A DNA stretch of 64,000 bases from an uncultured Gammaproteobacteria bacterium (GTDB lineage Bacteria; Pseudomonadota; Gammaproteobacteria; Steroidobacterales; Rariloculaceae): assembly GCA_963841645.1 (NCBI GenBank), contig CAWJDS010000018.1, forward strand, positions 68,881-132,880. Direction: 5' to 3'. Shown here one piece after another: positions 1,126 to 58,654 of the stretch (positions within the stretch are counted from its first letter, which is position 1; each line of letters starts with the position of its first letter). The notes under the pieces are model-generated. The model did no database searches. It saw only the letters and a program-made list of their open reading frames with translations, and was not told the DNA's origin. The position numbers and the translations under genes were made by a program.

Positions 1126-3137
1126 CTAGGTGTGCAGGAACTTGCGCGCGCGGCCGAGCGCCATCAACGGAAAGTAGTGCCGATAGAGGTTGTAGTTCAG
1201 CATGAAGCCGCGCTGCAGCTCAGTGCCTTGCGCGATTCGCTCGAGCGTACGCTTGTCGCGAAAGTCCATTCGTTCGCCGAAGCCGTAGCCCGGGAAGCCC
1301 GTGCCCGTGTAGTACGGCTCGTCCCACGTACCGTCGTCACGCTGTCGCGCGACGAGGAACGCGACGCCGCGCCGAATCTCGCGCTCGTGGGCGCGGTCGC
1401 CGGTCGCGATGAGCGCGAGCAGCGCCCATGCGGTCTGCGACGCCGTGCTCGGGCCGCGTCCGCGCAGCGCGTCGTCCATGTACGACGCGCACGTCTCGCC
1501 CCAGCCGCCGTCCTCGTTCTGGTGAGCGCGAAGCCAATCGGCCGCGCGGCGCACGAAGTCCTGCGACATGTCCTCGCCGAGCGCCGCGAGCGCGGGCAAC
1601 ACGGCGGCGGTGCCGTAGATGTGATTGACGCCCCAGCGGCCGAACCAGCTGCCGTCGGATTCCTGCTCGGAGCGGAGGAAGTCATAGCCGCGCTTGACTG
1701 CGCGGTGGTGGCGATCGAAGCCGAGGCTCGCCGAGCGCTTCGAGCACGTGCGCGGTCACGTCCGCCGACGGCGGATCGAGCGCCTCGCCGAAGTCGCAGA
1801 ACGGGATCTTGGTGATGATCTTCCAGTCGTTGTCCTTGTCGAACGCCGCCCAGCCGCCGTTGCTCGATTGCATCGCGAGCGTCCAGCCGAGCGCGCGATC
1901 GATCGTTGCGCGGATCCGCGGCTCGTCGAGCAGCGCGCGCGGGAGGCGCGCGAGCATCATCAGCGCGACGGCTGTGTCGTCGATGTCGGGATAGTGGAGA
2001 TTGGCGCGCTCGAACGCCCAGCCGCTCGGCTCGACGCCTTTGACCTTCTTCGCCCAGTCGCCGCGGTAGCGGACTTCGTTCGCGAGCACCCAATCGAGCG
2101 CCTGCTGCATGGCGGGCGTGAACTCGCGATCGCAGTCCTGCATCGCGAGCAGCGTCAGCAGCGTGTCCCAGACCGGCGACTCACTCGCCTGGATGTGCAG
2201 CGTTCCGCCGCGCTCGTACGCGAAGTGCGAGTCGAGCGCCGCGAGCCCCTTCGCCATCACGGGATGATCGAGCTCGTAGCCCTCGACGTTGAGGGCCATC
2301 AGGCTGTAGATCCACGGCGGTTGAATTCCGCCCCACACGCCGTCCGCGTCCTGGTGGCGCACGATCCAGCCGAGGCACGCGTTGATCGCGGTCTCGCGGC
2401 CCGGCGTGAGGCCGATCTTTTGATAAATGTGCAGGACGCGGTCGGAGAGCAGGAACAACCGCCGCCACGAGAGCCACGAGCCGCGCCGCGGCAGTCGGTA
2501 GTTCATCTTGTCGCGGCCGTCGGGAAACAGCTCGTCGAGCCGCCGGTCGGGCGGCAGCGGCCGCACTGCGCGGCGCGCGGACAGCACCGCGAGCGGCATG
2601 CAGCGTCGTGCGCGCCCAGCTCGCGAAGTTGTAGATGTTGAATGGATACCAGCGCGGAGTCGCGATGACTTCCGGCGGCAGGTTCGGCGTCGCGCTCCAC
2701 GGCCACTCGCCGAGCAGCGCGAGCCAGTACTTCGTGAACACGCGTACTTGCGATAAGCCGCCGTGCTCGAGGATCCAGCGTCGCGCGCTCACGAGCGGCG
2801 GCGAATCGGGGCTCATCCCGACGCAGCGCAGCGCCGCGTAGCACTCGACCGTGCTGTTGATGTCGCCGTTCGGCGCTCCGTAGTAGATCTCCCACGAGCC
2901 GTCCGAACGCTGTGCGTTGAGCAGCGTGCCGACCAGGTCCTGTTCGCGCGGATGCCGGATGCCGAGGAAATGCATCGCGAGCAGCCACTCCGCCTCCATG
3001 CAGTAGCTCGACTCGAGCATCCCGACCCAATAGCCCTCGGGTCGCTGATCGCGGTCGAGCCAATCCGTGGCCTTTCGAATGGCCGCGGCGAGCTGATGGG
3101 AGGCGTCTTCGAGGAGTCTCGGAGCGGACGCGGCCAA
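1126..3137 (-). CDS. shc: squalene-hopene cyclase; reading frame interrupted by two +1 breaks (near 2600 and 1725)
   Basis: Three minus-strand ORF pieces read consecutively as one cyclase. QW-type repeats are present (DGSWE, DGVWGG, NGGWAAF, DGSWFGRWG, DGGWGE, DGTWDE), as is the catalytic DxDDTA motif (YPDIDDTAV). The TTG start at 3137 is tentative. Confidence 0.9.
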
Positions 3138-5345: not shown

Positions 5346-5795
5346 CTATTGCACGGTGATGGTGATTTTTTCGGAATGAACCGGCGGCTGATGGGGGACA
5401 TGGTTCGCATCACCGAGCACGAGCTGCAACGTGTGCTGCCCCGGCGGCAATGTGAGCTCGACCTCGGTCTGTCCCGCGCCGAAATGGCGATGCTTATCGT
5501 CGTTGGGGATCGGCAGATTATCGGGCGGCAGATCGGTGTCGATCAGCAGGTGGTGGTGGCCGGTGTTCGCGTTCGTTACGCCGGCAGGCGCGACGCCCAT
5601 CCCCTTGAGGCCGAAGCGGACGGTGAACGGCGAGGTCACTTTGGCCCCATTCTGCGGCGCGATGAAATATTCCATCGCGCCCGCGGGCGAGGCGGTGCGT
5701 GGCAATGCGGCCGGCGCGGGAGTGGCGTTTTGAGCCTGACTCAGCGCGGGAAGAAACAATAGAAGAAGGCTGCAAATCGGTGCTATGGTTCTCAT
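5346..5795 (-). CDS. secreted DUF4399-like protein
   Basis: Signal peptide MRTIAPICSLLLLFLPALSQA. The remainder (GHHHLLIDTD...HFGAGQTE..L.L.PG.HTLQLVLGD) matches my recollection of the DUF4399 family. Start taken at an internal ATG. Confidence 0.6.
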   Translation of the reverse strand: MRTIAPICSLLLLFLPALSQAQNATPAPAALPRTASPAGAMEYFIAPQNGAKVTSPFTVRFGLKGMGVAPAGVTNANTGHHHLLIDTDLPPDNLPIPNDDKHRHFGAGQTEVELTLPPGQHTLQLVLGDANHVPHQPPVHSEKITITVQ

Positions 5796-6018
5796 GCCGT
5801 TGCCCCTAGTCGATGTTGTGAGTGTGCTCGTGCGAGCGGCACATAGTATCAGGTGCCACACCGGTCAACCCGGCCGGTGCCGTGGGCGTTATGGAATGTT
5901 TTCGGCTGCGCCGCCCGCTCGACGCGTAAAGTGAACTTCGCGCGACCGTCGAGTAACTAAAGGTGAAACCCACTCCGACACTGCGAACGACCTCGACTGA
6001 GATCGAGGGAGGACAATC

Positions 6019-7677
6019 ATGGAACTGAAGGTCATGCGCTCGGTGCTCACAGGCGCCGCGCTGCTCGGATTAATTGCCTGCAGCAGCCAGCAAACCGTCG
6101 GTCCGCAGGGAAGCAGTGGTGCGAGCATTCCGATGCCGTCGTCGGGCGGATCGAGCGGTGGATCGCAGTCCTCGTCCGGCGGTGGATCGCAGGGCGGTTC
6201 GAAGTCTTCATCGAGCGGTGGCCCGTCAGGCGGCGGCGGCTCGCAATCTTCATCGGGCTCTCAGGGCGGCTCGTCCGGCTCGCAAGGCGGCTCTTCGGGA
6301 GCACAGGGCGGCTCTTCCGGTGGCGGCTCGCAGGCCGGCGGTTCGTCACGATCGTCGGGCGGCTCGTCCGGAGCGCAAGGCGGTTCTTCTGGCTCACAGG
6401 GCGGCTCGTCCGGCGGTGGTTCGCAGGCCGGTGGTTCGTCCCGCTCCTCCGGCGGCTCGTCGGGCTCATCGGGCGGCTCGTCCGGTTCAGCGGGCTCAGG
6501 CGGCACCGTAGGCGCGGCCGGCTCGGCGTCCGGGCAAGGAGGCTCGCCGTTCCCGACCAGCTCCTCTGGAGGCGGCGGCTCGTCGGCCTCGACCGGCTCG
6601 CGCGGCGCCCAGGGCGGCGCGCAAGGCTCGGGCGGCGCGGGCTCGCAGAGCTCGACGTTCCCGACCGGGACCAGTGGCGGCAGCGGCGGCTCGCAGAACC
6701 CGTTTCCCACGGATAGCTCTGGCGGCGGTGGCGCCGCGGGCGGATCTCAGGCGGGTGGGGCCGGCGGATCGCAAGGCGGCTCGAGCGGTGCGCAGGGCGG
6801 CGGCGCCCAAGGTGGCGGCTCGAGCGGCGCGGGCGGAGGCTCAACGGCAGGCACGCAGGCGGGCGGTGGCGCTTCAGGCGCCGGCGGTTCGGGTTCGCCC
6901 GGCTCCGGTGGCACCGTAGGCGCTGCGGGCTCGGCGGGCGGTCAGGGCGGCTCGGCCTTCCCGACCGGCGGCGGGAACGGCGCCGGTGGCGGCTCGGCTG
7001 ACGGCCGTAGCGCGCAGAACGGCGGCGGTCTCGGCGGGGCGGGCGCGGCGGGTGGCGGCGCAGCGGGTGGCGGCGCAGCGGGCGGTGGCGCAGGCGGCAG
7101 CGGAGCAGCCGGCGGTGGCGCAGCGGGCAGCGGGTCGGGCGGCGGCGGCGGCGACAGCCCGTTCGGCGACGCTCAGGCTGCGAATGGCGCAGGCGGCAGT
7201 GGTGCCGGCCAGGAATTCGATAAGTCGCTGGGCGGCTTCGACGCGCGTATGGGCAAGGAGCAAGACGCAGTCGCGCGGGCCGGCGGCGGCACGGCAGCGG
7301 ATCAGGTGCTCAAAGAGGCGGGCCAGGCCGGCGGCGGTGACGCAGCGGGCGGCGGTGCGCCAGCCGGTGGAGCAGCCGGTGGCACGGCCGCCGCGGGCGC
7401 CGGCGGGTCCGGGCAAGGCGGCCAGGCCGGCAACGGTGCCGCTGGCGGCTCGAGTGCCGTCGGCGGACAGCAGGGCGGCGGCGCGGCCGGTGCGAGCAAG
7501 AACCGCAACGACGACGCGGGCCCCGACAAGGCTGCCGCGACGGTGCAGGGCTGCAACGATACCGACAAGGTCGCGCGCCAGCTTTGCGAGGCGGCGACCG
7601 CGGAGAACGATCCGTTCCTCCGCGCTTCGCTCTGGGAAGAATATAACCAGTACAAGAAGATCGTTGCGCGCCAGTAG
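6019..7677 (+). CDS. lipoprotein with an approximately 480-aa Gly/Ser/Ala low-complexity region and a short structured C-terminal domain (operon gene 1)
   Basis: SD-like GAGGGAGGA lies 5 nt upstream of the ATG. Lipobox LLGLIAC. Long GGSSG[AS]QGG repeats with periodic [SP]FPT motifs. Non-repetitive C-terminus: CNDTDKVARQLCEAATAENDPFLRASLWEEYNQYKKIVARQ. Confidence 0.7.
   Translation: MELKVMRSVLTGAALLGLIACSSQQTVGPQGSSGASIPMPSSGGSSGGSQSSSGGGSQGGSKSSSSGGPSGGGGSQSSSGSQGGSSGSQGGSSGAQGGSSGGGSQAGGSSRSSGGSSGAQGGSSGSQGGSSGGGSQAGGSSRSSGGSSGSSGGSSGSAGSGGTVGAAGSASGQGGSPFPTSSSGGGGSSASTGSRGAQGGAQGSGGAGSQSSTFPTGTSGGSGGSQNPFPTDSSGGGGAAGGSQAGGAGGSQGGSSGAQGGGAQGGGSSGAGGGSTAGTQAGGGASGAGGSGSPGSGGTVGAAGSAGGQGGSAFPTGGGNGAGGGSADGRSAQNGGGLGGAGAAGGGAAGGGAAGGGAGGSGAAGGGAAGSGSGGGGGDSPFGDAQAANGAGGSGAGQEFDKSLGGFDARMGKEQDAVARAGGGTAADQVLKEAGQAGGGDAAGGGAPAGGAAGGTAAAGAGGSGQGGQAGNGAAGGSSAVGGQQGGGAAGASKNRNDDAGPDKAAATVQGCNDTDKVARQLCEAATAENDPFLRASLWEEYNQYKKIVARQ
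6265..6450 (+). repeat. 93-bp tandem duplication (2 copies, 78/93 identical) inside the Gly/Ser-rich lipoprotein gene
   Basis: Copies at 6265-6357 and 6358-6450 aligned by hand, 15 mismatches, in frame (31-aa unit). A second dispersed ~66-bp repeat encodes GSGGTVGAAGSA.GQGGS.FPT near 6487 and 6904. Confidence 0.8.
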
Positions 7678-7695
7678 GCGCGCCGAGGGTCCGAT

Positions 7696-9186
7696 ATGCG
7701 CCGCGTCGCGATAACTTTCGTCGCAGGGTTGTCATTCATTGCGGGCTGCACGAGCACCGAGGTGCTCGTCGCGCACTCGGTCGCGCTCGAGAAGAGCACG
7801 ACCGAGATCGCCGAGAATCAGCTGCTCGACGTCGGCGTCACGGTGTTCGACTCGGGCGTGCCCGAGGGAGAGGTCGACAAAGACGTCCTCGAGCACCTGA
7901 TCAAGGAAGGCACGTTCGTGCAGATCCGCAGGAGCGAGGCGATCTACATGGCCGTCTTGCTCCGCAACACGCTCCAGAAGAGCGCGAATTGGGGCACGGT
8001 GTGGGTCACGCCGAAGGATTCGACTGCGGCGGATCTGAGCGTCGATGGCAAGATCCTGCATTCCGACGGCGACTACTTCCAGCTGCACGTCAAAGCCACC
8101 GATGCGACGGGTCACCTCTGGATCGACAAGACGTACCAGATGTCGACCGCCGCCGGCGCGTTCAATCGCCAGCGTTACCCCGACCTCGATCCGTACCAAG
8201 ACGTGTTCAACGAGGTCTCGAACGACCTCGCGAAGGCGCGCAAGGGCCTGTCGGCGAAAGACACGCAAACGATTCGAACCACCGCAGGGTTGCGCTACGC
8301 GGCCGACCTGAGCCCCGAGGCGTTCAACGGTTACGTCGTCGACAACAAAGGGCAGTACAAGATCAATCGCCTGCCGGCCGACGGCGACCCGATGTACGAC
8401 CGCACCGAGCGCGTGCGCCAGCGCGAGCGCCTGTTCCTCGATACGATCGACGAGCACTACGACCAGTTCTACAAGGACGCAAGCACGCCCTACAACGGCT
8501 GGCGCGAGAGTGCGCGCGAGGAGTCGATCGAGGTCAAGGAGCTGACGAAGTCCGCGCATTGGCGCACCGGCATGGGCATCGCGTCGATCCTCGCGTCGGT
8601 CGTCTACGGCAGCAGCCACGGCGGCGAGTTCACCGAGCGCATGCTGCGCGACGCCGTGCTCTATATCGGCGTCGACATGCTGCGGACGAGCCAAGTCCGC
8701 AAGCAGGAAAAGCAGATCCACCAGCAGCAGCTCGAGGAGCTCAACGGCTCGTTCGACGACTCGATCAAGCCCGTCGTCGTCGCGATCCAAGGCACCGAGC
8801 ACCGGCTGACCGGCACCGCCGATGCGCAGTACAACGAGTGGCGCGACCTGCTGCGCCAAATCTTCATCGAAGAGAGCGGCTTCGTGCCGGACGACTTGAC
8901 GGTCTATGCGGGCGAAGTGGAGCCGGCCGCTCCACGTCAAGATCCGCTTCCCGGCCTCGCGTTGAAGTTGCCCGCCGGCGGCATACCGGCGGCTGCCGAG
9001 GCCGGGGCGGCCAATGCACCCACCGGTGCCGCCGCTGCGCCCGAGCAAGCATCCGAAGCCACTCCTGCGCCGGCGGAAGGCGCGAGCGCACCGGCGCCCG
9101 CGTCGCCGTCCGCGCCCTCGAGTGAAGCGGCCGCTCCCGCAGAATCTCCAGCCAATGCCACTTCGAGCGCCGCCAACGGGGGCTGA
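7696..9186 (+). CDS. hypothetical lipoprotein with Ala/Pro-rich C-terminal tail (operon gene 2)
   Basis: Lipobox SFIAGC. 496-aa intact ORF starting 18 nt after gene 1. Globular N-terminal ~410 aa with one Gly-zipper-like hydrophobic stretch (WRTGMGIASILASVVYGSS). The last ~80 aa are A/P/S/E low complexity. Confidence 0.7.
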   Translation: MRRVAITFVAGLSFIAGCTSTEVLVAHSVALEKSTTEIAENQLLDVGVTVFDSGVPEGEVDKDVLEHLIKEGTFVQIRRSEAIYMAVLLRNTLQKSANWGTVWVTPKDSTAADLSVDGKILHSDGDYFQLHVKATDATGHLWIDKTYQMSTAAGAFNRQRYPDLDPYQDVFNEVSNDLAKARKGLSAKDTQTIRTTAGLRYAADLSPEAFNGYVVDNKGQYKINRLPADGDPMYDRTERVRQRERLFLDTIDEHYDQFYKDASTPYNGWRESAREESIEVKELTKSAHWRTGMGIASILASVVYGSSHGGEFTERMLRDAVLYIGVDMLRTSQVRKQEKQIHQQQLEELNGSFDDSIKPVVVAIQGTEHRLTGTADAQYNEWRDLLRQIFIEESGFVPDDLTVYAGEVEPAAPRQDPLPGLALKLPAGGIPAAAEAGAANAPTGAAAAPEQASEATPAPAEGASAPAPASPSAPSSEAAAPAESPANATSSAANGG

Positions 9187-10018
9187 GCGCGACGCCGAGC
9201 CGGACGTCCCGTACTGCGCTGACGCTCCGCTGCGTTCGACGCGCGATTTGTTTGCGTCCGCCGGCTTGCGCCTCATCGAGAGGGTCGGCGTCGGCGGCAG
9301 CTCCGAAGTCTGGCGCGCGCTCGACACACGCGAGCGCAGTATCGCGCTGAAGATTCCCCTCTCCGGCGCACATGACTCGTTCGCGCGGCTCGAACGTGAG
9401 CACGACGTGCTCGCGGCCGCACAGCACGGCCACATCGTCGAGACGCACGGCCTCATCGAGCACGACGGCGTGTGCGCGCTCGCGCTCCAGTACTTACCCG
9501 GCGGCGACCTCGTTTCCCTCGCCGGGGTCGACCCGCGCCACTGGTTGCGGGCGGCATATGCCGTCCACGCTGCGCTCACGCATCTGCACTCGCTCGGTTA
9601 TGCCCACCGCGACGTGAAGGCGCGCAACGTGCTGTTCGATGCGCGCGGACGCGCGCGCCTCATCGACTTCGCCTCCGCCTTGCCGCTCGGTGCTCCGGCG
9701 CAATACGGCGGCACCACGGCCGCACACCGGCGGTCTGGACGCAACCCGATTGTCACGGCCGCGGACGACGCTTATGCGTACGCGGTTCTGCTGTACGAGC
9801 TCATTGCGGGCCGGCTGCCGTACGGTCCCGCAGGCCGGCAGCCCGTGTCGCGCACGCGCCTCGCGCCTCCCGGGGGGCGCAAGGGCCCCGCGGCGGCGCT
9901 GGCCGCCCGAGTCCGCGACGTGCTCGAAGCCGATCCTAGGCGTGCGCCAGGACTTTCAGTCTTTGCGGATGTCTTAGAATCTGCCATTCCGGCCGACCTC
10001 GAGCCGGCCGAGATCTGA
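9155..10018 (+). CDS. Hanks-type Ser/Thr protein kinase-like protein (operon gene 3)
   Basis: Motifs GVGGSSEVW (G-loop), IALKIP (beta3 Lys), HRDVKARNVLF (catalytic loop), LIDFASA (DFG variant DFA), YAYAVLLYELIAGRLPY. The start is uncertain: ATG 9155 overlaps gene 2 by 32 nt, and the alternative is TTG 9248. Confidence 0.75.
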   Translation: MPLRAPPTGAERDAEPDVPYCADAPLRSTRDLFASAGLRLIERVGVGGSSEVWRALDTRERSIALKIPLSGAHDSFARLEREHDVLAAAQHGHIVETHGLIEHDGVCALALQYLPGGDLVSLAGVDPRHWLRAAYAVHAALTHLHSLGYAHRDVKARNVLFDARGRARLIDFASALPLGAPAQYGGTTAAHRRSGRNPIVTAADDAYAYAVLLYELIAGRLPYGPAGRQPVSRTRLAPPGGRKGPAAALAARVRDVLEADPRRAPGLSVFADVLESAIPADLEPAEI

Positions 10019-10043
10019 TCCAAGCAACAAGCGTCGAACGCCA

Positions 10044-11552
10044 GTGGAGCCGAGCCAAGCACAACACGAAGAGACCGTAGTCCCGATCAAGCCGGGGCTA
10101 CGTGCCGCGCGTGCGGACACGGCTGCGGCTGCCGCGACCGCGGTACAGCTGCGGACACGCACGCCGTTTTGGCAGTACCTCGCCGGCGCGCTGCTGATCG
10201 CGGCCGCGGTGTTCGTCTTCGCCTTGTTCCCGCGCCTCATGCAGCCGGCGCCCGACCGGCCGGCCGCTGCCACGGCGCCGCAGCCGAGCGCGCCCGACGC
10301 GCCACAGCTGTCTGCCGAAGAGCTCGCCAGGCTCAAGTCGCAGGCCGACTCGCTGCTCGCGAAGCTGCTGTCGCAGCAGAGCCAGCTGGATGCGCTGCAC
10401 GTCGATTCCTGGGGCGGCGACCAATACGCCCATTACAAGGAGCTCGGCAACGCGGGCGAGGACGCGTTTCTCGCGAACGACTTCGCGAAAGCGGTCGCGA
10501 AGTACACGGACGCGACCACCGTGGGCTCCGAGCTGCTCTCCCGATCGGGGGAGATCGTGCAGCGCGCGATCGCGGCGGCACAGGAAGCATTCGCGGCCGC
10601 GAACGCCGAGGTCGCGATCGCGCAGTACGACGTCGTGCTCGGCATCGAGCCCGAGAACGCGACCGCCAAGGCCGGGCGCGCGCGCGCGGAGCGTCTGCCG
10701 GAGGTCCTTACGCTCGTCGAGCGCGGCAATACGGAGCGTGACGCGGGTGAGCGGCAGAAGGCGATCGCGACTTATCGCGAGGCGCTCGCGATCGATCCGC
10801 GCTGGGAACCCGCGAGCCGCGCGCTCGCGGCTGTGACCGCCAACGTGCGCGACGCGGACTTCGAGCTCGCGATGTCGCAAGGCTCGAAGGCACTCGCGGC
10901 GGAGAGCTACGCGGAGGCGCAGAAGCAATTCCAAACCGCGCTCGCGCTGCGCCCGCAGGCGCACGAGGCGCAGGACGGACTCACCCAGGCGCAGGAGGGC
11001 GAGAGGCTCGGCAAGATCGCGCTCACCGAAGCCCGCGCGCTCGCATTCGAGCGCCGCGAGCTCTGGGACCAAGCGATCGGGCAGTACAAGGGCGCGCTCG
11101 CAGACGATCCGACCCTCGTGTTCGCAAGGACGGGCCTCGAGCGCTCGGAGCTGCGCGCGGGCCTCGACGCGAAGCTCCGCAACTTGATCGACAATCCGAC
11201 GCTGCTGTTCGGCGACACGGTGCTAGCCGACGCGCGCAAGCTCGTCGTCGAGGCGCGCGGCATCGCCGAGCCGGGGCCGGTGCTGACCGACCAGATCGGC
11301 AAGCTCGACCGCCTCGTGACGCTCGCGGCGACGCCGATCGCCGTGCGCCTCACGTCGGATCAGCACACCGAGGTTACGGTTTATCGCGTCGGTGCGCTCG
11401 GCTCGTTCACGGCCAAGGAGCTCCAGCTCCGACCCGGGACGTACACGGCGATCGGCAGCCGCAACGGCTTTCACGACGTGCGCCAAACTTTCACGGTCGT
11501 GCCGGGTCGAACTCTGCCGCCGATCAGTGTGATTTGCAGCGAACCGATCTGA
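10044..11552 (+). CDS. membrane-anchored TPR-repeat protein with C-terminal beta-sandwich (PEGA-like) domain (operon gene 4)
   Basis: GTG start. One TM helix (FWQYLAGALLIAAAVFVFALF). Repeated TPR-like helical pairs (AIAQYDVVLGIEPENATA, AIATYREALAIDPRWEPA, AQKQFQTALALRPQAHEA, AIGQYKGALADDPTLVFA). The C-terminus VTVYRVGALG..LQLRPGTYTAIGSRNGFHDV is PEGA-like. Confidence 0.75.
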   Translation: MEPSQAQHEETVVPIKPGLRAARADTAAAAATAVQLRTRTPFWQYLAGALLIAAAVFVFALFPRLMQPAPDRPAAATAPQPSAPDAPQLSAEELARLKSQADSLLAKLLSQQSQLDALHVDSWGGDQYAHYKELGNAGEDAFLANDFAKAVAKYTDATTVGSELLSRSGEIVQRAIAAAQEAFAAANAEVAIAQYDVVLGIEPENATAKAGRARAERLPEVLTLVERGNTERDAGERQKAIATYREALAIDPRWEPASRALAAVTANVRDADFELAMSQGSKALAAESYAEAQKQFQTALALRPQAHEAQDGLTQAQEGERLGKIALTEARALAFERRELWDQAIGQYKGALADDPTLVFARTGLERSELRAGLDAKLRNLIDNPTLLFGDTVLADARKLVVEARGIAEPGPVLTDQIGKLDRLVTLAATPIAVRLTSDQHTEVTVYRVGALGSFTAKELQLRPGTYTAIGSRNGFHDVRQTFTVVPGRTLPPISVICSEPI

Positions 11553-11571
11553 TCAGGCAGGAAGAAGCACG

Positions 11572-14028
11572 ATGGGCGCAAGCAATGTAGCGCGCGACTC
11601 GGTCGTGACGATCGAGCACCTCGGACGGACCCGCGAGCTCCCGGCGAGCGCGCTGCCGGCCACGATCGGCGGCGACACGGCCGCGACCATGAGGATCAAC
11701 GGCCTGCCCGGCTTGATCGAGATTCGCGAGCACGACGGCGCGTTCTTCGTCGCCGCGGGACGAGGAGCGCGCAATTTGCGCGTCGACGGCGCGCCCGTCG
11801 CCGGCACGCGCGAGCTCAAGGACGGCGACGTGATCGCGTTCGATCGCGCGCGCTTGGCGTGCCGGATCGACGGCGGCCGGCTCGCCATCGCAATCGAGAC
11901 GCTCGTGACCGCGGGCGACACGGCGCCGCCCGACCTCCGTGAGGACGCGGCCGGCGACGACGTAGACGGCGATGTCGGCCAGACGATCGTGAAGCCCGTC
12001 GCGTTCAAGTTGCCGCCCGTCGTCGGCGCCGGCGCGAAGCCGGGCGCCTCGAGGGCGGTGACGATCGGCGCGCGGCGTCGTGCTCGCGTTGCTCGCGGTC
12101 TTTGCGTGGTTCGCGTTCACGGCGAAGTCCGTCGCATTGAATTTGGATCCCGAGCCCGAGGCGATGAGCCTGCCGGGCACGCTGTTCAAGATCCGCTACG
12201 GCGATCAGTACTTGCTGCATCCGGGCTCCCATCGCGTCGCCGCGACGCTCAAAGGCTATTACCCGCTCGATACCCAATTCGAGGTGACGAGCGCGTCCGG
12301 TCAAGTGATCGACCTCAAGCTCAAGAAGCTGCCGGGGCTGGTCACCCTGACGACCGAGCCCGAGGCTATGGCGCGCGTGCTGCTCGACGGCATGCCGCTC
12401 GGCGAGACGCCGCTCAAGGACGCGGAGATCACGCCCGGCGTCCACCGCCTCGAGCTCAGCGCCGACCGATTTTTGCCTCAGGTCGTCGAGATCGACGTAC
12501 GCGGCGCCGCCGAGCGCCAATCGCTCGTCGCGAAGTTGACGCCGAACTGGGCGCCGGTGTCGCTCGCGACGCAGCCGCCCGGCGCGACCGTGCTCGTCGA
12601 CGGTGCCGACGTCGGCGTCACGCCGCTCGAGATGCAGATCACCGCGGGCGAGCGGCAGATCGAGGCGCGCCTGAGCGGCTACAACGCGTGGACGAACAAG
12701 GTCATCGTGAGCGCCGGCACGCCGCTGCAGCTGCCCGACGTGAAGCTCGCGCTCGCCGACGGCCGCGTCGACATCGTGAGCAACCCGGCCGAGGCCAACG
12801 TGAGCATCGACGGAGAGTATCGCGGCCGCTCGCCGCTCACCGTCAAGCTCACGCCGGGGAAAGCGCACGAGCTCACGCTCACTAAGCCCGGGTACGAGAC
12901 TGCGACGCGGAGCCTCTCGATCGCGGCCGACAGCGGCCGAAAGCTCGCGATCGATCTCGTCGCGCAATACGGAGAGGTGCAGGTCGAGAGCACGCCGGTC
13001 GGCGCGGATGTTTGGGTCGACGGCGAGCGGCGCGCTGCAACGCCCGTGACGCTCTCGCTCACGGGGGTTAGCCACGAAATCGAGATCCGGCGCACTGGCT
13101 TCGCGAACGCGCAGCAGCGCGTGACGCCGCGCCCCGGCTTCCCGCAGAAGCTCGACTTCGACCTCACGGCGCTCGATCAGAGCACGGGCGGCGGATACCC
13201 GACCGTGCGCAAGACGGGCGCGGGCCAGGAGCTCAAGGTGATTCCGTCGGGCCAATTCACGATGGGCTCGTCGCGGAGCCAGCAAGGCCGGCGCGCGAAC
13301 GAGGTGCTGCGGCCCGTGCGTCTCACGAAGGCGTTCTATCTCGGGGTCCGCGAGGTTACGCAATACCGATTTCCGCGCATTCAAGCCCGATCACAAGTCC
13401 GGCGAGTTCGGTGGCAAGACGCTCGACGAGGGCGACCAGCCGGTCGTGCGCGTGACGCCCGAAGAGGCGATGCAGTACTTGAATTGGCTCAGCATCCGCG
13501 ATGGGCTCCAGCCCGTCTACGAGCAAAAGAACGGCGTCTGGGCCGCGGTGCGACCGCTGCGCGGCGGCTATCGGTTGCCTACCGAGGCCGAGTGGGAATG
13601 GGCCGCGCGCTACGCGGGCCGCGACTCCGCGCTGTTGTATCCGTGGGGCGCCGACTGGCCGCCGCCCGATCGCTCCGGAAACTGGGCCGACGTCTCGGCG
13701 CGCAACATGCTGCCGACGATATTGGTCACCTACAATGACGGCTTCCCGGTCAGCGCGCCGAGCGGAACGTTCGAGCCGAATCCCGTCGGTATCCGCGACC
13801 TGGGCAGCAACGTCGCTCGAGTGGATCCAGGACTTCTACGTGCCCGACATCACGGAGAACGTGAAGCTCGTGGAGGATCCGCTCGGGCCGGAGACCGGCC
13901 AGTTGCACGTGGTGCGCGGCGCGGGCTGGCGCAGCGCGACCGTGCAGGACCTGCGCATGGCCGCGCGAAGCTACGGCACGGATGCGCGCGAGGACATCGG
14001 CTTCAGGATTGCGCGCAATCTCGAGTGA
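11572..14028 (+). CDS. FHA domain - TM - PEGA repeats - formylglycine-generating-enzyme (SUMF1/FGE-sulfatase)-like domain protein (operon gene 5); three +1 frame breaks (near 12070, 13361, 13816)
   Basis: N-terminus is FHA-like (IGGDTAATMRI..LIEIREHDGAFFV..RNLRVDGAPV..LKDGDVIAF). TM helix VVLALLAVFAWFAF. Four to five PEGA units (e.g. ATVLVDGADVGVTPLEMQI, ANVSIDGEYRGRSPLTVKL, ADVWVDGERRAATPVTLSL). C-terminal FGE-type motifs: FTMGS, RLPTEAEWEWAAR, NVAEWIQD, VVRGAGW. Confidence 0.8.
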
Positions 14029-14092
14029 TCTCGATGCTCGGAACGAAGGACAACGGAATCGTCGCCCGCGCCCGGGCGCGATGGAGGCGACC

Positions 14093-14440
14093 ATGAACAT
14101 TGCACGAGTCTTTGCCGTCGCGATCACGCTCGGCGTGCTCTCGACCGCGTCGTCGCAGGAGACGCAGAAACAGGAAGCGCCGCAAGCTGCCAAACCGGCG
14201 GCCGACGCGCCGGCGAACGCGCCGCAAGCGCCGGCCGGCAACGCGGCGCAGACGCCGGGCGCGCCGTCCTCGGGCGCCTCGCAGCCGGCCACGGGAGCTC
14301 AAGCGCCCGCTTCAACCGCGTCTCCGCCCCCGCCTCCCTCGGCGGCCACCGGCAAGACCGGCGTGATCAAGGACAACGAGTTCATCCCGACGGAAGAGAT
14401 CCAGCCCGACGAAGCCGTGACGTTCCCGGTCGACATCTGA
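14093..14440 (+). CDS. small secreted Ala/Pro/Gln-rich protein with conserved-looking C-terminus (operon gene 6)
   Basis: Signal peptide MNIARVFAVAITLGVLSTASS. Low-complexity middle. C-terminus GVIKDNEFIPTEEIQPDEAVTFPVDI. The stop is 11 nt before the next start. Confidence 0.55.
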   Translation: MNIARVFAVAITLGVLSTASSQETQKQEAPQAAKPAADAPANAPQAPAGNAAQTPGAPSSGASQPATGAQAPASTASPPPPPSAATGKTGVIKDNEFIPTEEIQPDEAVTFPVDI

Positions 14441-14451
14441 CGAGCTGACGG

Positions 14452-15835
14452 ATGCGCACTCTCGCGATCGAGTTCAACGACGCCGGCATCGCGATCGCGG
14501 ACGCGCAGTCCGTGCTCGCGATCGAGCCCGGCTACGCGGTCGTCGAGGGCACCAAGATCATCACGGGCCGCGACGCGGTCGCGAAGGCGCGGCTCAATCC
14601 GCGTCAGGCGAGCAATCGCTTCTGGAATGCGATGAGCCTGGAACGCGGCTCCGCCGGCAGCGAGATAACGCAGAGCGCCGCGGAGCTCGCGTTCGCGCAG
14701 ATCGATTCGCTCTGGAAGCGCTTCGGCGGCGGCGCCGACAACGCGGTGCTCGTGGTCCCGGGCCACATCCGCGGCGAGCAGCTGGGTCTCGGCCTTGGGC
14801 TCGCGAACGAATGCGGCATCGATGTGCGCACGATCGTCGCGACGGCGGTGGCTGCGAGCGTGCGGCCATATCCGGGCCGGCAGCTGCTCTACGTCGATGC
14901 GGGCCTCTATCGCGTTGCCGCGACGCTGATCGAGCAGGGCAGCGAAGCGATCGTGAGCTCCGAGCAGAGCGTGATCACCACGGGCCTCGCGAGTCTCACG
15001 GAAGGCTTCGCGCGCCGAATCGCCGAGCTGTTCGTGCGGGCGACACGGTTCGACCCGCTGCACAAGGCCGAGACCGAGCAGATGCTCTACGACCGTTTGC
15101 CCGGCTGGCTCGAGCGGCTGCGCGATCAGGACCGGATCGAGATCACGCTGCCGCAGCACGGCGAGGAGCAGAAGATCACGCTCGACCGCGACGCGCTGCG
15201 TTCCGTTACGGCCGGGTTCAACCGCGCGCTCGTGCAGCTCATCGCATATTTCCGCCAGCCGGGCCAGAGCGTCGTGATCCAGGTGTCCGCGCATCTCGCG
15301 TCGCTGCCCGGAATCGCGGCGGAGCTCGCGCGCCTCGACGACGCGCACATCGTGCCGCTGCCTCCGGGGCATGCGGCGCGCAGCGCGTTGCTGAAGCCCG
15401 AGCTGATCCAGGCGCAGCAGGGCCAGGTGAAGCTCTTGAAGAGGCTCGGTTGGCGCGAGCCGCCGGCCGACCCGTCGGCGTCGGGTGCCCAGCCGGCGCC
15501 GGTCACCGCTGCATTGCACGAGTTTCCGCCGACGCACGTCGTTTACGCGGGCATCGTGTATCCCATCGGGGCGCGCGGGCTCGTCGTCGGCCGCGAGCCG
15601 GTCGACGGCCGGCGCACGATCGTCGTCGCGAGCCAGGCGAACGGAGTGTCGCGCGCGCATTGCGAGCTCGTCGTGCGTGACGGCGAGCTCAAGCTCATCG
15701 ATCTCTCGCCGCTACGGCACCTTCGTGAACGAGAAGAAGGTCGCCGGCGAGACGACGCTGCAACGCGCCGACGTGATCCGGATCGGCTCGCCGGGCGCCG
15801 AGCTCCAGGTCGTCAGCGTGGAGCCCGCGCAATGA
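14452..15835 (+). CDS. Hsp70/actin-fold-like protein with C-terminal FHA domain (operon gene 7); one +1 frame break near 15707
   Basis: N-terminus MRTLAIEFNDAGIAIAD...VVPGHIRGEQLGL...LLYVDAGLYRV resembles a degenerate Hsp70/ASKHA layout (weak call). C-terminus is a clear FHA: GLVVGREP...GVSRAHCELVVRDGELKLIDLS/RYGTFVNEKKV..ADVIRIG. Confidence 0.7.
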
Positions 15836-16939
15836 AGCAGCGCCGCCGCGAGCTCAACATCTTCTCGATGTCGTTCCTCGACGCGATCACGGCCGGATTT
15901 GGCGCCGTCGTGCTGCTGTTCATGCTCGTGAACCAGAATGCGCTCGTCGACACGCAGACCGCGATCAAGGCCACGGAGGCCGAAGCGCAGCGCTGGGAGC
16001 TCAAGGTGCTCACGGGCCAAAAGAACCTCGTGCAGATCAAGGAGCTGCTCCAGAAGCAGCTCGAGCAGTGGACCGCGCTCAAGGCGCTGCGCCAGAACCT
16101 CGTGAGCGAGGTGACGGAGACGACAGACGAAGCTCGCGACGCTCACCGAGGACTCCGCGGCGCGCAAGGCCGCAATCGAAAAGCTGCAAGGCCGACCTCG
16201 CGTCGCTCGAGACCGAGACGAACAGCATGAAGGCCGCGGCCGCCAAGCCTTCGAAGAACAACGACGGCGATCGCATTCGCGGGTTCGAGGGCGAGGGGCA
16301 TCGGCAGTACCTGACCGGCCTGCGGATGGGCGGCTCGCACGTGCTGATCCTCGTCGACGCCTCGACGAGCATGCTCGACCGCACGATCGTCAACGTGATC
16401 CGGCGGCGCAACATGCCGCCCGACCAGCAGCGCAAGTCGCCGAAGTGGCAGCAGGCCGTCAACACGGTCGATTGGCTCACGACTCAGATCAAGCCCGGCA
16501 CGAACGTGCAGATCATCGCGTTCACCGATAAAGCGATCACGCTCACGCCGAATACGGACGGCAAGTGGATCACGCTCACCGACGGCAGCGAGCTCGACGC
16601 GGCAATGACCTCGCTCAAGGGCATGGTGCCGAAAGGGCCGACGAGCCTGCACGCCGCGTTCACGGCTGCGCGGATGCTCGAGCCGAAACCCGACAACATC
16701 TACCTGATCACCGACGGCTTGCCGACGATGGGCGAGATCGTGCCCGCGCGCCAGGGCGCGACGGGCCGCGAGCGGCTCGATCACTTCAACCGAGCCGTGC
16801 GGCAGCTGCCGGTCGGCGTCGCCCGTGAACATCATCCTGCTCGCCGATGGAAGGCGATCCCGCGGCCGCGCCCGCGTTCTGGGTGCTCGCTTTGCGGACC
16901 GGCGGCTCGATGCTCGCGCCGTCCGAGGATTGGCCATGA
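15832..16939 (+). CDS. TM - coiled-coil - von Willebrand factor A domain protein, paralog 1 (operon gene 8); four +1 frame breaks (near 16128, 16190, 16818, 16845)
   Basis: ATGA overlap with gene 7. N-terminus MKQRRRELNIFSMSFLDAITAGFGAVVLLFMLV. Heptad-rich segment. vWA with MIDAS VLILVDASTSM, then IYLITDGLPT. The reconstructed end ...PMEGDPAAAPAFWVLALRTGGSMLAPSEDWP stops at 16937-16939. Confidence 0.8.
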
Positions 16940-17950
16940 AACGCCGCCGCGAGCTCGAAGTGTTCAGCATGTCGTTCCTCGACGCGATCTGCTGCGGCTT
17001 CGGGTCGATCATTCTGCTGTTCATCATCAGCCGCAACAGCGGAGCCGATTCGTCTCGAGCAGAGCCAGAAGGACCTCTCGGGCGTGATCGCGCAGTACCA
17101 GCAGGAGCTCAACGAGATCCTCGGCGAGACCGATATCGTGCGCCGCGACGAAGCGACGACCGCGAGCGACCTGCGCACGGATCAGCGCAAGGTCGAGGAC
17201 CTCAAGGGCCAGCTCGACAAGATTCGCGCCGAGGTGCTCTCGACCACGAAGGACACGACGTTCTCGAACGAGATCGAGGGCAAGCTCGCGACCGCGAAGC
17301 AGAGTCTCAGCGACGACATGAAGAAGCTGCTCGCCGACTACAAGCCGCCGCTCGACGAGTACAAGGTCGGCGGCATCCCGGTCGACAGCGAGTACATCGT
17401 GTTCCTCGTCGACACGTCGGGCAGCATGCAGCAATACGCCTGGGACCGGATGCTCGAGGAGGTGCGGCAGACGCTCCAGGTCTATCCGACCGTCAAGGGC
17501 ATCCAGGTGATGGACGACGAGGGCGCGTACCTCTTCAAGAGCTACCGCAACGAGTGGATTCCCGACACGCCGTCGCGCCGCCAGGCGATTCTCGACGCGA
17601 TGAAGAACTGGCACTCGTACTCGGACTCGAGCCCGCGCGAAGGGTATCCTCGCGGCGCTCGACGTGTTCGCCGATGGCCAACAAGAAGATCTCGCTCTAC
17701 GTGTACAGCGACGACTTCGCGGTCGGCAAGGTGAACTCGATCGTGCGCGAGATCGATCGGCGCAACAAACCGGACGCGAACGGCAAGCGGCTCGCGCGGA
17801 TTCACGCGGTCGCGTTTCCGACGATCTACGAGGCGACCGGCGGCGACATGTACACCGAGGCGGACTTCGCGGTGCTGCATGCGCGCGATCTGCCAGCGCA
17901 ACGGCGGCACGTTCGTCGCGTTGCCCGCGCGCCGCGACATGGGCCGCTAG
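16936..17950 (+). CDS. TM - coiled-coil - von Willebrand factor A domain protein, paralog 2 (operon gene 9); four +1 frame breaks (near 17043, 17650, 17680, 17877)
   Basis: ATGA overlap with gene 8. N-terminus MKRRRELEVFSMSFLDAICCGFGSIILLFIIS is near-identical in pattern to paralog 1. Coiled coil, then vWA MIDAS IVFLVDTSGSM. Reconstructed end ...MRAICQRNGGTFVALPARRDMGR, TAG at 17948-17950. Confidence 0.8.
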
Positions 17951-19343: not shown

Positions 19344-21082
19344 TCAGCCGAGCCGGAACTTGCGCTCGGCGTAGTCGTACAACGGCCTCCAGAAGCACGC
19401 GGTTGATCACGACGACGAACAGACACATCGTCGCGATGCCGAGCACGATGCGATGCAGGTCGCCGGCCGCCGTCGCGTCGGCGATGTACGCGCCGAGGCC
19501 GTGCGCCTCGAGCTTCATGTCGCCCCAGCTCGCGACCTCGGCGACGATCGCCGCGTTCCACGAGCCGCCCGAGGCCGTGATCACGCCCGGTCACGTAGTA
19601 GGGGAAAACGCCGGGCAGCGCGACCTTGCGCCACCAGAGCCAGCCGCCGACCTGCAGGTTCTCCGCCGCGTAGCGCAGCTCGTTCGGCATCGCGCGTCGC
19701 GCCGACGATCACGTTGAACAGGATGTACCACTGCGTGCCGAGGATCATCAGCGGGCTGAGCCAGACGTTCGCGTCGAGATGCCAGGTGACGATGCCGTAG
19801 ACCGCGAGCGGGAACAGCAGGTTCGCCGGGAACGCCGCCAGGAACTGCGCGACCGGCTGCACGATCTGCGGCGCGCGCGGCCGCAGGCCGACCCAGACGC
19901 CGACCGGCACCCAGACGACGCTCGCGAGCGCGATCAGCACGAACACGCGCATCATCGTGAGCAGCGCGAGGCCGGCGACGCTCGAGCGCCTCGGCGAGCG
20001 ACGTCTCGCTCGATCAGCATCGCGACGATGTGCCAGCAGCGCGAACGCGAGCGCCGCGACGAGCACCGAGCACGAGCGCGAGCAGACCCGCCGCGGCGGT
20101 CGCGCCGCGGTTCGGCCGCGGCGCGCTTCGCCGGCACGTGCCGGCGCCGCGCGGCCCAGCGAACAGGGCGCGGAACGCGCCGCGCACGGCGCCGACGAGC
20201 CGCGAGCGGCGCAACACCGTCGAGCACCCACGACGTCGGCGCCGCGAGCCCCGGGTCCTGCTCGACGCGAAAGCGATCCACCCACGCGACGAGCGGCCGG
20301 AACAGCAGCTGGTCGTAGAGCAGGATCACGACGAGCATCGTGACGATCGCCCAGCCGATCGCCGCGAGGTTGCGCTGCTCGATCGCGAGCGCGATGTACG
20401 AGCCGATGCCCGGGCAGCGCGACACGTCGTGTTGCCGACGCTGATCGCCTCGGCGGCGACGACGAAGAACCAGCCGCCCGACATCGACATCATCATGTTC
20501 CAGACGAGCGCGGGCATCGCGAACGGCACCTCGAGCCGCCAGAACCGCATCCACGGCGCGAGGTGGAACGAGTCCGCGGCCTCGCGGAGCTCGGTGGGCA
20601 CGGTGCGCAGCGACTGGTAGACGCTGAACGCCATGTTCCAGGCCTGGCTCGTGAAGATCGCGAAGATCGCCGCGAGCTCGGCGCCGAGCACCCGGCCGCG
20701 CCCGAGCGTCAGAAAGAACACCACGGTGATCGAGATGAAGCCGAGGATCGGCACGGACTGCAGGATGTCGAGGATCGGCACCAGCAGCTTGCCGGCGCGC
20801 TCGTTCTTCGCGGCCCAGGTCGCGTAGCTCAGCGAGAACAGCAGCGAGACGGCGAGCGCCGCGAGCATGCGCAGCGTCGTGCGCGCCGCGTACTCGGGCA
20901 GGTGAATCGGGTCGAGCGACAGCGGCAGCGGCCTCGAGATGCGCGAGCGGCTCGAGCAGCTCGCGGCTCGTGCTCGCGAGGAACGCAACGAACCCGATCA
21001 CGAGCACGATCGCTACCGCGTCCCATGGCGTCGTCGTGAGGCGCCGCAGGCCGAAGAAGTCGACTTCTCGCGTGGAGCTCAA
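19344..21082 (-). CDS. fused double-domain ABC transporter permease; many frame breaks
   Basis: Fragments give two BPD-type permease halves. Examples: LLVPILDILQSVPILGFISITVVFF, EAADSFHLAPWMRFWRLEVPFAMPALVWNMMMSMSGGWFFVV. Second half: VWVPVGVWVGLRP...AQFLAAFPANLLFPLAV, LRYAAENLQVGGWLWWRKVALPGVFPYYVTG. Confidence 0.8.
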
Positions 21083-21268
21083 GAGAGGAGCCTCAATGAT
21101 CGGCTCGTCGAACGTATACGCAGCGCACGAACGCGCTCGGCGTTCTGTGTATCATTGGCGCCGTTTTTGTCGTCGAGTGGAACGCATTGGATTCGTCGGC
21201 ACGTCGCCGCCGGAAAACCGCTCGTTGGACAAGCCTAACCAGCGAACGTTACCGGAGCATCACGCGTC

Positions 21269-22051: not shown

Positions 22052-22177
22052 GCTCTCCGCGAAGCGGCGCCATAATTCGTCAGAGGTTCGCTAGCGCTCG
22101 TGCGCGATCGGTCGCGGGTGCGTCAGCGCGGTTCGCTGTAATGCAAGCGTGTCCTAACACGCTTCGAGGAGCGAACC

Positions 22178-22919: not shown

Positions 22920-23057
22920 TTCCCGCTCCCCCGGCCGCGAGAGCGGCCTTCGTGGCCGGGGGCCGCCGCAGACGGAAGCGCGGTGGCCTCCGGCCATGCC
23001 TTTTCTCGGAAGGTCGCCCTGATCGAAAACGCGTCGCGACGGGGCGAGGGCCTTCCG

Positions 23058-50403: not shown

Positions 50404-50500
50404 TTCGTGGGCGCCGCGCGTCGAAAACGATTGCGGCCGCATCTTACCCGAACTGCGTCACGGCCGGACAACGCCGCGCCGCTGCTACAATCTCGCCGCC

Positions 50501-57998: not shown

Positions 57999-58015
57999 GC
58001 GTGCGAGCTAGACGC

Positions 58016-58603: not shown

Positions 58604-58654
58604 CGAATTGCTCCTTAGGCGTACGGACGCGCGGAGAATACGCCGCGAATCCTC

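Follow-up and report, generated by a model that had tools for sequence, protein, structure and literature searches.

Gene content of the locus

We analysed a 64,000-nt stretch of contig CAWJDS010000018.1 from an uncultured Gammaproteobacteria bacterium (the window, to which all positions refer unless a related locus is named). A listing of open reading frames (ORFs) and a three-frame translation of the window show that nine genes of the + strand fill positions 6019-17950. They encode two lipoproteins, a Hanks-type kinase, a TPR protein, an FHA-like/PEGA/FGE-like protein, a small secreted peptide, an Hsp70-like/FHA protein and two membrane-anchored vWA proteins. This operon is conserved in several bacterial phyla and is probably a phosphorylation-regulated and proton-powered machine of the cell envelope; the window holds a derived copy of it that lacks the motor gene. 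The genes, with their transmembrane (TM) segments and main motifs, are as follows:

6019-7677, + strand: gene 1, lipoprotein; lipobox LIAC at 6070-6081; intact ORF
7696-9186, + strand: gene 2, highly conserved lipoprotein; lipobox IAGC at 7738-7749
9155-10018, + strand: gene 3, short soluble Hanks-type Ser/Thr kinase (Pkinase, E 4e-23); 32-nt overlap with gene 2
10044-11552, + strand: gene 4, N-in bitopic protein; TM 10167-10229 (from hydropathy), TPR_2 (E 4e-8)
11572-14028, + strand: gene 5; FHA-like domain 11602-11898, TM 12055-12124, four PEGA repeats, FGE/SUMF1-like domain at about 13244-14025
14093-14440, + strand: gene 6, small secreted Pro/Ala-rich peptide ending EFIPTEEIQPDEAVTFPVDI-COOH (14378-14437)
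14452-15835, + strand: gene 7, cytoplasmic protein; region like the nucleotide-binding domain (NBD) of Hsp70 (ASKHA fold), then a canonical FHA domain (about 15529-15832); insertion at 15707
15832-16939, + strand: gene 8; TM helix 15862-15930 with Asp17 at 15880-15882, coiled coil, periplasmic vWA domain with DASTS at 16356-16370
16936-17950, + strand: gene 9, paralogue of gene 8; TM 16963-17031 with Asp16 at 16981-16983, coiled coil, vWA domain with DTSGS at 17411-17425

A first-pass annotation of this DNA had proposed the nine-gene layout, and each of its boundaries and junctions agrees exactly with the ORF listing, the two ATGA stop-start overlaps included. The edges that it called sharp are formed by a divergent DUF4399 gene upstream (5346-5861, - strand) and a convergent ABC ATPase gene (- strand) that begins about 68 nt past the operon. 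The topology that it assigned, with the kinase, FHA and Hsp70-like parts in the cytoplasm and the TPR, PEGA, FGE-like and vWA parts in the periplasm, fits the predicted TM segments, and the DxSxS signature of the metal ion-dependent adhesion site (MIDAS) is intact in both vWA paralogues, as DASTS in gene 8 and DTSGS in gene 9. Profile searches recovered the kinase, the TPR, the four PEGA repeats, the FGE-like domain, the FHA domain of gene 7 and the vWA domain of gene 8, whereas the vWA domain of gene 9 fell below the cut-off, no FHA domain was matched in gene 5, and the Hsp70-like region was recognised by its fold and not by Pfam. One figure needs correcting, since the low-complexity lipoprotein of gene 1, given as about 75% Gly/Ser/Ala, has a composition of 69.6% Gly+Ser+Ala. 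A promoter and terminator scan was uninformative, and Rfam models found no RNA families in the window.

Frame breaks and assembly quality

The G+C content of the region is about 69%, and the codon-position G+C of the + strand shifts frame repeatedly. Frame breaks within the operon are confined to genes 5, 7, 8 and 9, and a base-by-base comparison with two relatives (L001 and L003) showed that all of them are single inserted bases: three in gene 5 (12073, 13360, 13817), that of gene 7 at 15707, four in gene 8 (16123, 16187, 16818, 16842) and four in gene 9 (17039, 17645, 17682, 17878). Removal of these breaks had been recommended in the first-pass annotation as a preliminary to further work; deleting the 12 bases, as the relatives indicate, restores nine ORFs without internal stops, of 552, 496, 287, 502, 817, 115, 460, 367 and 336 aa. 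Intact orthologous operons in L001, L003, L004 and L005 match the restored ORFs, L001 being a short-read metagenome contig with intact genes whose DNA is 91.5% identical to the window.

Similar lesions are found outside the operon. The squalene-hopene cyclase (SHC) gene upstream (1126-3070, - strand) is broken by like insertions at 1731 and 2599, an OmpA-like gene downstream (22142-23260, + strand) reads in two frames with a break near 22440, and codon-position G+C shows frame switching inside many genes along the whole window. Since like lesions hit unrelated housekeeping genes and the relatives are intact, we conclude that the breaks are window-wide sequence errors of the source assembly rather than pseudogenisation of this locus, and the window has the appearance of an unpolished, insertion-prone assembly.

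Conservation and synteny

For comparison we used 84 related loci; a scan of GTDB (one genome per species) gave at least 422 stretches with a relative of gene 7, of which 80 were retrieved. Genes 2 and 7 have about 600 matches each (E <= 0.001), and the best 120 of each are 56-96% identical and come from metagenomes and metagenome-assembled genomes (MAGs) labelled Gammaproteobacteria. A full HMMER search with a gene 7 profile gave, at E<=1e-30, 944 sequences that each represent a 50%-identity cluster; almost all are full length, at about 455 aa. The order 1-2-(3)-4-5-6-7-8-9, followed by tblastn and iterated profile searches, is kept in most of the retrieved loci that are long enough. According to their record titles, the gammaproteobacterial carriers include the cultured Steroidobacter agaridevorans and Peristeroidobacter agariperforans, Thioalkalivibrio and Ca. 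Rariloculaceae, and the other carriers include Acidobacteriota, Desulfobacterales/Thermodesulfobacteriota and MAGs titled Rhodospirillaceae. Such synteny is far beyond chance. The first-pass annotation had made the unity of the cluster depend on synteny in other genomes, and the gene order is conserved across genera and phyla.

The chromosomal neighbours are also shared across species, with DUF4399, PALP, NlpC/P60 and SHC genes on one side and OmpA, bioF and Lon genes on the other, which argues for vertical inheritance and not for a defence island. No homologue of gene 7 was found on 72,556 plasmids.

A MotA/TolQ/ExbB-like gene in related loci

In related loci, the interval from gene 5 to gene 7 holds a further conserved ORF, about 270-295 aa long, that matches MotA_ExbB (PF01618, E 1e-12 to 1e-13). 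Of the 84 loci, 70 have this MotA-like gene within the cluster, most commonly between gene 6 and gene 7, a position seen in all phyla; in the sister clade of the window's lineage it follows gene 9 and precedes an OmpA-family gene. The best NCBIfam match of its product is TolQ, scored at no more than 19-26 bits (cut-off 221), and 69 of 72 MotA-like sequences retain the motifs GxxGTV and FNST, which we take to correspond to the Thr-bearing pore helices of TolQ/ExbB. Searches of PDB sequences with the MotA-like protein, and likewise with protein 8, yielded nothing useful. Within the 64-kb window itself, no MotA/TolQ-like sequence was found by tblastn or by profile search.

The downstream order in relatives is gene 9, MotA-like gene, OmpA gene, dethiobiotin synthetase (- strand), bioF-like gene (- strand) and Lon (- strand). 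In 41 related loci, gene 9 or the MotA-like gene is succeeded by one of the OmpA family, and in L004 and L005 this comes directly after gene 9. The window has such a gene further downstream:

22172-22916, + strand: OmpA-family peptidoglycan-binding protein (Gly-zipper + OmpA); OmpA profile matches at 22142-23260 and 22401-22916

Between gene 9 and this gene lie the ABC ATPase gene (- strand), a permease gene (20329-20997, - strand) and a BacA gene (21239-22048, + strand), the latter two assigned by Pfam, and beyond it follow a bioF-like gene, a cytochrome b561 gene and Lon, all on the - strand. Judged by this order, the OmpA gene of the window is probably the former neighbour of gene 9. The segment 17951-22916 has the look of a local rearrangement that replaced the slot of the motor gene.

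In a neighbour-joining tree of gene 7, the window falls within a motor-less clade that is sister to the clade in which the MotA-like gene follows gene 9, and further motor-less genomes (L004 and L017) occur elsewhere in the tree. This scattering of the motor-less branches suggests that the channel gene has been lost from the cluster, or relocated, at least two or three times independently. The motor-less operons are not decaying but are under purifying selection: between L001 and L003, both motor-less, dN/dS lies at 0.13-0.31 in each of the genes, with 0.14 in gene 8, and neither TM Asp has been lost. Among the best 120 MotA-like homologues, which reach down to about 74% identity, none lies on the long contigs of motor-less MAGs, and the five places that were inspected, for four of those homologues, are all inside a complete cluster.

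The paired vWA proteins

Proteins 8 and 9 each have a single N-terminal TM segment, at residues ~10-33, and wherever a locus covers both genes, these lie side by side as paralogues of about 28-36% identity. The TM motif FS[LM]SFLD[AVCI][IM]xCGFG is nearly invariant across phyla, its Asp included, and the vWA domain of gene 8 is recognised by Pfam (VWA_2, E 2e-8). The TM Asp is conserved at every locus except in the gene 8 copy of L034/L035 (about 11382-12476 in those loci), where it is replaced by Ala and where the MIDAS DxSxS motif is lost too; the other vWA paralogue of L034/L035 retains both the TM Asp and the MIDAS. This joint loss may point to a functional coupling of the two sites and to a single active subunit being enough.

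The accompanying genes

The two lipoproteins that open the operon are very different in character. Gene 1 encodes a low-complexity linker of about 480 aa, 70% Gly/Ser/Ala, followed by a conserved C-terminal domain of about 45-55 aa with two Cys (7546-7674), whose profile matches upstream of gene 2 in 58 loci; the protein has no Pfam or NCBIfam match. The gene 2 product starts with an alpha/beta domain, continues in a long helical hairpin and ends in a tail rich in Pro and Ala. The best 120 of its 599 matches are 60-96% identical and unannotated throughout, it has no Pfam match, and a PDB sequence search yielded nothing useful. From a mediocre AlphaFold2 (AF2) model (pLDDT 65), a TolB-N/LptE-like N-terminal domain is only a hint (Foldseek E 2e-3, TM-score about 0.2).

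The kinase of gene 3 has intact motifs, with the catalytic Lys K66 (9341-9355), HRDxKxxN (9605-9628) and DFA (9665-9673). In the Steroidobacter locus L078 (4053-6395), gene 3 and gene 4 form one in-frame ORF of 780 aa, with Pkinase at residues 15-236 and a TPR at 456-483 by Pfam; in L053, L057 and L073 a like fusion is suggested by ORFs of 743-810 aa at the corresponding position. A fusion of this kind indicates a receptor-type kinase; in the window's lineage, the kinase and gene 4 are separate genes. The kinase is missing from L058, L060, L061, L069, L070 and L076. Six Desulfobacterales loci have neither the kinase nor the FHA-like N-terminus of gene 5, four loci without a kinase in the cluster retain the gene 5 FHA-like domain, and the reverse was never seen. 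The kinase is an optional module, absent from most Desulfobacterales loci. The periplasmic part of protein 4 consists of a helical/TPR region and a C-terminal beta-sandwich, and its C-terminus matches CarboxypepD_reg/PEGA weakly.

For gene 5, Pfam gives the four PEGA repeats at E 5e-51 and FGE-sulfatase at E 8e-36 in an intact orthologue. The FGE-like domain is devoid of cysteine, the sole Cys of the protein being in the FHA-like domain, and it cannot have the catalytic Cys pair of a formylglycine-generating enzyme (FGE); judged by its residues, the C-terminus of protein 5 is therefore a non-catalytic FGE-like module, as in relatives of the GldK/PvdO type. The best NCBIfam match of protein 5 is the ring lipoprotein GldK/PorK of the type IX secretion system (T9SS), at E 9e-27, with 94 bits against a cut-off of 350. 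Neither Pfam nor a PDB profile search found an FHA domain at its N-terminus, which does align to the FHA profile of gene 7 (hhalign 96%, E 2e-9) and lacks the SxxH loop. This region is probably a degenerate FHA-like fold, and its binding of phosphopeptides is doubtful. Of the two FHA domains announced by the first-pass annotation, that of gene 7 holds, but that of gene 5 does not hold as a canonical domain, being degenerate and visible only at the level of hhalign.

The peptide of gene 6 has no Pfam match and is not lineage-specific. Its acidic C-terminal motif, [ED]F[IV]P[ST]E..xxDxxVxFP[VI]DI-COOH, occurs in 78 loci across phyla, where the motif profile always finds it after gene 5 and ahead of the MotA-like gene or gene 7. 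Such a short conserved C-terminus on an otherwise low-complexity peptide resembles a partner-docking peptide.

Gene 7 carries a canonical FHA domain (Pfam, E 1.5e-11) with the residues GR...SRxH...N, of which the R, S, H and N columns are invariant, and this domain is kept at all loci, the kinase-less ones included. The N-terminal 330 aa (AF2 model, pLDDT 89) were matched by Foldseek to Hsp70 NBDs at E 1e-15 to 1e-17 with a TM-score of about 0.7 to NBD-only chains. Pfam finds no HSP70 match in the protein, and the FHA domain occupies the C-terminus in place of a substrate-binding domain. We also considered gene 7 as a PilM with genes 8 and 9 as PilN-like partners and rejected this, because Foldseek favours Hsp70 NBDs over PilM/FtsA and a MotA-like neighbour fits the TM helix better; PilM/PilN is retained only as an analogy for a possible binding of cytoplasmic tails by protein 7.

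Comparison with known systems

An arrangement of TM-tethered vWA proteins, encoded as heterologous pairs beside tolQ-like genes without tolR/exbD, was predicted in a recent computational study (Mol Biol Evol 2025, section 8, Fig. 4c-d; PMC12204202). In that prediction, the pair forms the dimer of a 5:2 proton motor, the Asp of a TolR-like "transpore helix" (TPH) facing the Thr ring of the pentamer; the family is widespread in Proteobacteria and of unknown function (PMC12204202). The operon agrees with this TPH-vWA prediction in its N-terminal TM and C-terminal vWA domain, its TM Asp and its heterologous vWA gene pair; an adjacent tolQ-like gene without tolR/exbD is not found in the window but is present in 70 of the 84 related loci. 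The study is silent on the Hsp70-like/FHA, FHA-like/PEGA/FGE, kinase/TPR, small-peptide and lipoprotein genes that accompany the core here (PMC12204202). The cluster is a new and much richer version of the predicted TolQ-like + TPH-vWA arrangement. No named system, and no other account of the full gene combination, was found in the literature searched, so that the absence of a named counterpart claimed in the first-pass annotation holds for the full cluster but not for its TPH-vWA + tolQ-like core, which had already been predicted.

The complete clusters resemble Tol-Pal, ExbBD-TonB and MotAB in having a MotA/TolQ/ExbB channel with Thr-bearing TM motifs, a partner with a single N-terminal TM and an essential-looking Asp, and often an adjacent anchor of the OmpA/Pal type. 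Unlike these systems, they have neither the periplasmic domain of ExbD/TolR nor a TolA/TonB transducer, the putative dimer carries a coiled coil and a vWA domain instead, and a kinase/FHA/Hsp70-like layer is added. The Agl-Glt machinery of Myxococcus xanthus has one TolQ-like and two TolR-like subunits, and brings together TPR proteins, lipoproteins and the vWA protein CglB in a trans-envelope complex driven by the proton motive force (PMF). It differs in that no Glt homologues occur here, the vWA domains are on the stator-like subunits and not on an outer-membrane (OM) adhesin, and the cluster is much smaller.

The TagQRST-PpkA-Fha1-PppA pathway of type VI secretion (T6SS) in Pseudomonas aeruginosa shares an inner-membrane-anchored Hanks kinase, an FHA reader, an FGE-like periplasmic protein, an OM lipoprotein and a periplasmic vWA domain. 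For the FGE-like protein the comparison goes through COG1262, the FGE/SUMF1 family. TagR is listed as COG1262 (PMC13584744). The Hanks kinase and the FHA reader of this threonine-phosphorylation pathway both have counterparts in the operon (Pkinase E 4e-23, FHA E 1.5e-11). Unlike the pathway, the operon has no T6SS genes, no PppA (PP2C) and no ABC module of the TagST type, its vWA domains are not on the kinase, and its FGE-like domain has a membrane anchor and is joined to PEGA repeats. As the first-pass annotation had stated, there is no T6SS core gene, PP2C, MoxR or DUF58 in the operon, and none in the scanned ORFs of the window, which are of a housekeeping kind: ABC, BacA, OmpA, aminotransferases, Lon, a TonB-dependent receptor, acetohydroxyacid synthase, M48/LemA and ApbE. 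The neighbours of the related loci are of the same kind.

The Tol, Ton and Agl motors and the TagQR-PpkA-Fha1 sensing module are the nearest analogues, and further systems share fewer features. TerY-P also combines a vWA domain with a kinase, but no PP2C is present here, and the TerY vWA is soluble whereas the present ones are TM-anchored. The Bat/MoxR-vWA operons share vWA and TPR domains in envelope proteins (Bat), but MoxR (AAA_3) and DUF58 are lacking here. In Sulfolobus, Ser/Thr phosphorylation by the ArnC/D kinases couples ArnA (FHA) and ArnB (vWA) to the control of a surface machine; this Arn system is archaeal, cytoplasmic and regulatory, without a membrane anchor or a motor, and the similarity is limited to the FHA domain (PDB chain 5a8i, weak, E 0.09). 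The features that define Zorya, namely a ZorA with a long C-terminal tail, a ZorB with a peptidoglycan-binding domain and ZorC/D or other effectors, were not found, the relatives giving only weak, generic matches to ZorA (E 8e-4) and ZorB (OmpA domain) and no effector genes. A ternary or conflict system of the type described by Aravind was rejected: the kinase matches TCAD9 weakly, the operon has no MoxR or STAND gene, and the composition found here is not in the eLife 2020 paper on such systems (PMC7159879).

Proposed function

The reading we favour, with fair but not strong confidence, is that of a phosphorylation-regulated, proton-powered envelope machine, conserved as a family and represented in the window by a derived, motor-less copy. 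Gene content, gene order, domains, conserved residues and the loss of the channel gene in cis are observed, while motor coupling, binding partners, phospho-gating and the physiological role are inferred. The system, widespread and vertically conserved, would span the envelope and has about 10-11 genes, and the window holds the version of one lineage. In its complete form, which most genomes with the cluster possess, a divergent, putative proton channel of the TolQ/ExbB/MotA type is encoded between gene 6 and gene 7, and proteins 8 and 9 would form a dimer inside the channel pentamer, at the position of TolR/ExbD/MotB in a 5:2 proton motor. Their coiled-coil stalks could carry the metal-dependent vWA/MIDAS heads into the periplasm, near the wall or the outer membrane, where proton flow would be converted to force or to a conformational change. 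Protein 5, the TPR protein 4, peptide 6, the two lipoproteins (proteins 1 and 2) and, in most cases, a wall anchor of the OmpA type are candidate partners in the periplasm and at the outer membrane; speculatively, the acidic C-terminus of peptide 6 could serve the MIDAS site or a TPR carboxylate clamp. On the cytoplasmic side, the Hanks kinase and protein 7, whose FHA domain would read phosphothreonine, may gate assembly or activity, much as PpkA-Fha1 does for the T6SS. The sublineage of the window may either borrow a channel encoded elsewhere or act as a motor-less sensor or tether.

A wider form of this proposal is offered more tentatively, as an attractive possibility that we would not yet call probable. 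It takes the cluster as defining a new class of PMF-driven trans-envelope machines in hundreds of species of at least three phyla, with a vWA-headed dimer as rotor/stator of a TolQ-like 5:2 motor, gating through threonine phosphorylation by a receptor-type Ser/Thr kinase and the Hsp70-fold/FHA protein, and the secreted peptide as a ligand, the lineage of the window having no dedicated channel gene and either sharing a housekeeping TolQ/ExbB or working independently of a motor. For the physiological role, our guess would be envelope tethering, surveillance or maintenance. The first-pass annotation had seen a phosphothreonine sensing or signalling machine; the self-contained, trans-envelope kinase/FHA operon stands, but signalling alone does not account for the MotA-like gene in 70 of 84 loci and for the Asp-bearing TM helices.

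Well-understood 5:2 proton motors are few (flagellar Mot, Ton, Tol, Agl, GldLM and Zorya), and each drives a major envelope process; the cluster is a compact and strongly conserved candidate for another. The location of force-transmitting vWA domains on stator-like subunits would be unusual, as is an operon that brings together a eukaryote-like kinase with an FHA reader and a protein of Hsp70 fold, and if the proposal is true, phosphothreonine signalling would be linked directly to PMF-driven envelope mechanics. The presence of the cluster in cultured Steroidobacter and Peristeroidobacter makes it testable, and the natural motor-less variants are ready comparisons for what the motor contributes. 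It is the family that is of interest, and the instance in the window less so.

Several observations weigh against the proposed proton-powered machine. The channel gene is absent from the window, so that PMF coupling is an extrapolation for the source genome. In proteins 8 and 9, the TM helix shows no homology to ExbD/TolR by Pfam: neither ExbD nor MotB was matched by the N-terminal 45-48 residues at E up to 10, nor, at E up to 1, by the full-length proteins. The vWA domain of gene 9 reaches only E 7.5e-4 (VWA_2), below the Pfam cut-off, and the likeness to TPH-vWA is by published description, the published seed being from Idiomarina loihiensis. On the regulatory side, the FHA-like domain of gene 5 is without the phosphothreonine-binding loop, most Desulfobacterales versions have no kinase, which means that phosphorylation is not universal, and in gene 7 the Hsp70-like glycine loops are diverged, with a marginal hhalign match to DnaK (E 0.078), which makes ATP binding no more than putative.

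Alternative explanations

One alternative is a motor-independent sensor of envelope stress or contact, like the T6SS threonine-phosphorylation pathway, in which the OM lipoproteins and the FGE-like module would activate the membrane-associated kinase, as TagQ/TagR do for PpkA, protein 7 would relay the signal to a cytoplasmic output and the MotA-like gene would be accessory. The domain set (FGE-like module, OM lipoproteins, Hanks kinase, FHA and vWA) is indeed common with TagQR-PpkA-Fha1, and the lineage of the window and at least two others have no MotA-like gene, the rest of the operon being kept under purifying selection. We nevertheless regard this explanation as unlikely, given that the MotA-like gene is within the cluster in 70 of 84 loci and in all phyla, that proteins 8 and 9 retain their TM Asp also at kinase-less loci, that the kinase itself is the dispensable part in Desulfobacterales, and that there is neither an output domain nor a PP2C phosphatase. 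An apparatus for surface motility, adhesion or secretion, comparable to Agl-Glt or T9SS, in which the vWA heads would engage an OM or surface ligand to move or export, would agree with GldK/PorK as the best NCBIfam match of the FGE-like domain (E 9e-27), with two paralogous stator-like subunits that recall AglQ/AglS, with the long Gly/Ser-rich lipoprotein of the operon and with the role of a vWA adhesin in gliding (PMC9946355). At the loci inspected, however, no OM beta-barrel, secretin, substrate-like or GldL/M/N-type genes occur in or beside the cluster, which is small and self-contained, and the GldK score is far under the family cut-off (94 vs 350 bits), making such an apparatus quite improbable.

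Anti-phage defence is a still weaker contender, and to us a very improbable one, whether in the manner of Zorya, as a MotAB-like sensor of envelope perturbation, or of a TerY-P triad of vWA, kinase and phosphatase. The kinase does match the PD-T4-6 and Mad6 kinase models (E 1e-26 to 3e-27), the MotA-like gene matches ZorA weakly (E 8e-4), and vWA and kinase themes are found in conflict systems (PMC7159879); but these kinase and MotA similarities are generic, of 5027 PADLOC models, none is matched by the other genes beyond the noise from coiled coils, effectors (nuclease, protease, TIR etc.) and PP2C are absent, the chromosomal neighbours are stable across species, and gene 7 is without a plasmid homologue. 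The frame breaks, if real, would point to a decaying pseudogene cluster, and their distribution could be read in that way, with 12 frame-breaking insertions in 5.9 kb, all within genes 5-9 and none in genes 1-4. We find this scarcely credible, for all the lesions are +1 insertions, without deletions or nonsense codons, their removal gives full-length proteins, like lesions occur in unrelated housekeeping genes of the window, and the short-read-assembled close relatives are intact, with dN/dS of 0.13-0.31.

Other features of the window

Three further regions, in addition to the operon and its flanks, deserve mention. At 50282-54355 (+ strand), an ORF of 1358 aa combines an AAA_35 (STAND-like) NTPase with a proprotein-convertase P-domain and WD40 repeats, an architecture of the type discussed for NTP-dependent conflict systems, at a position unrelated to the operon. 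At 56022-58843 (- strand), a LemA-family gene lies beside a gene of 662 aa with an M48-peptidase domain, and an ApbE-family ORF (58470-59648) overlaps on the opposite strand. At 36479-41506 (+ strand), genes for a TPR protein, a sulfotransferase (37121-38056) and a TonB-dependent receptor of 1064 aa (38315-41506) follow one another consecutively.

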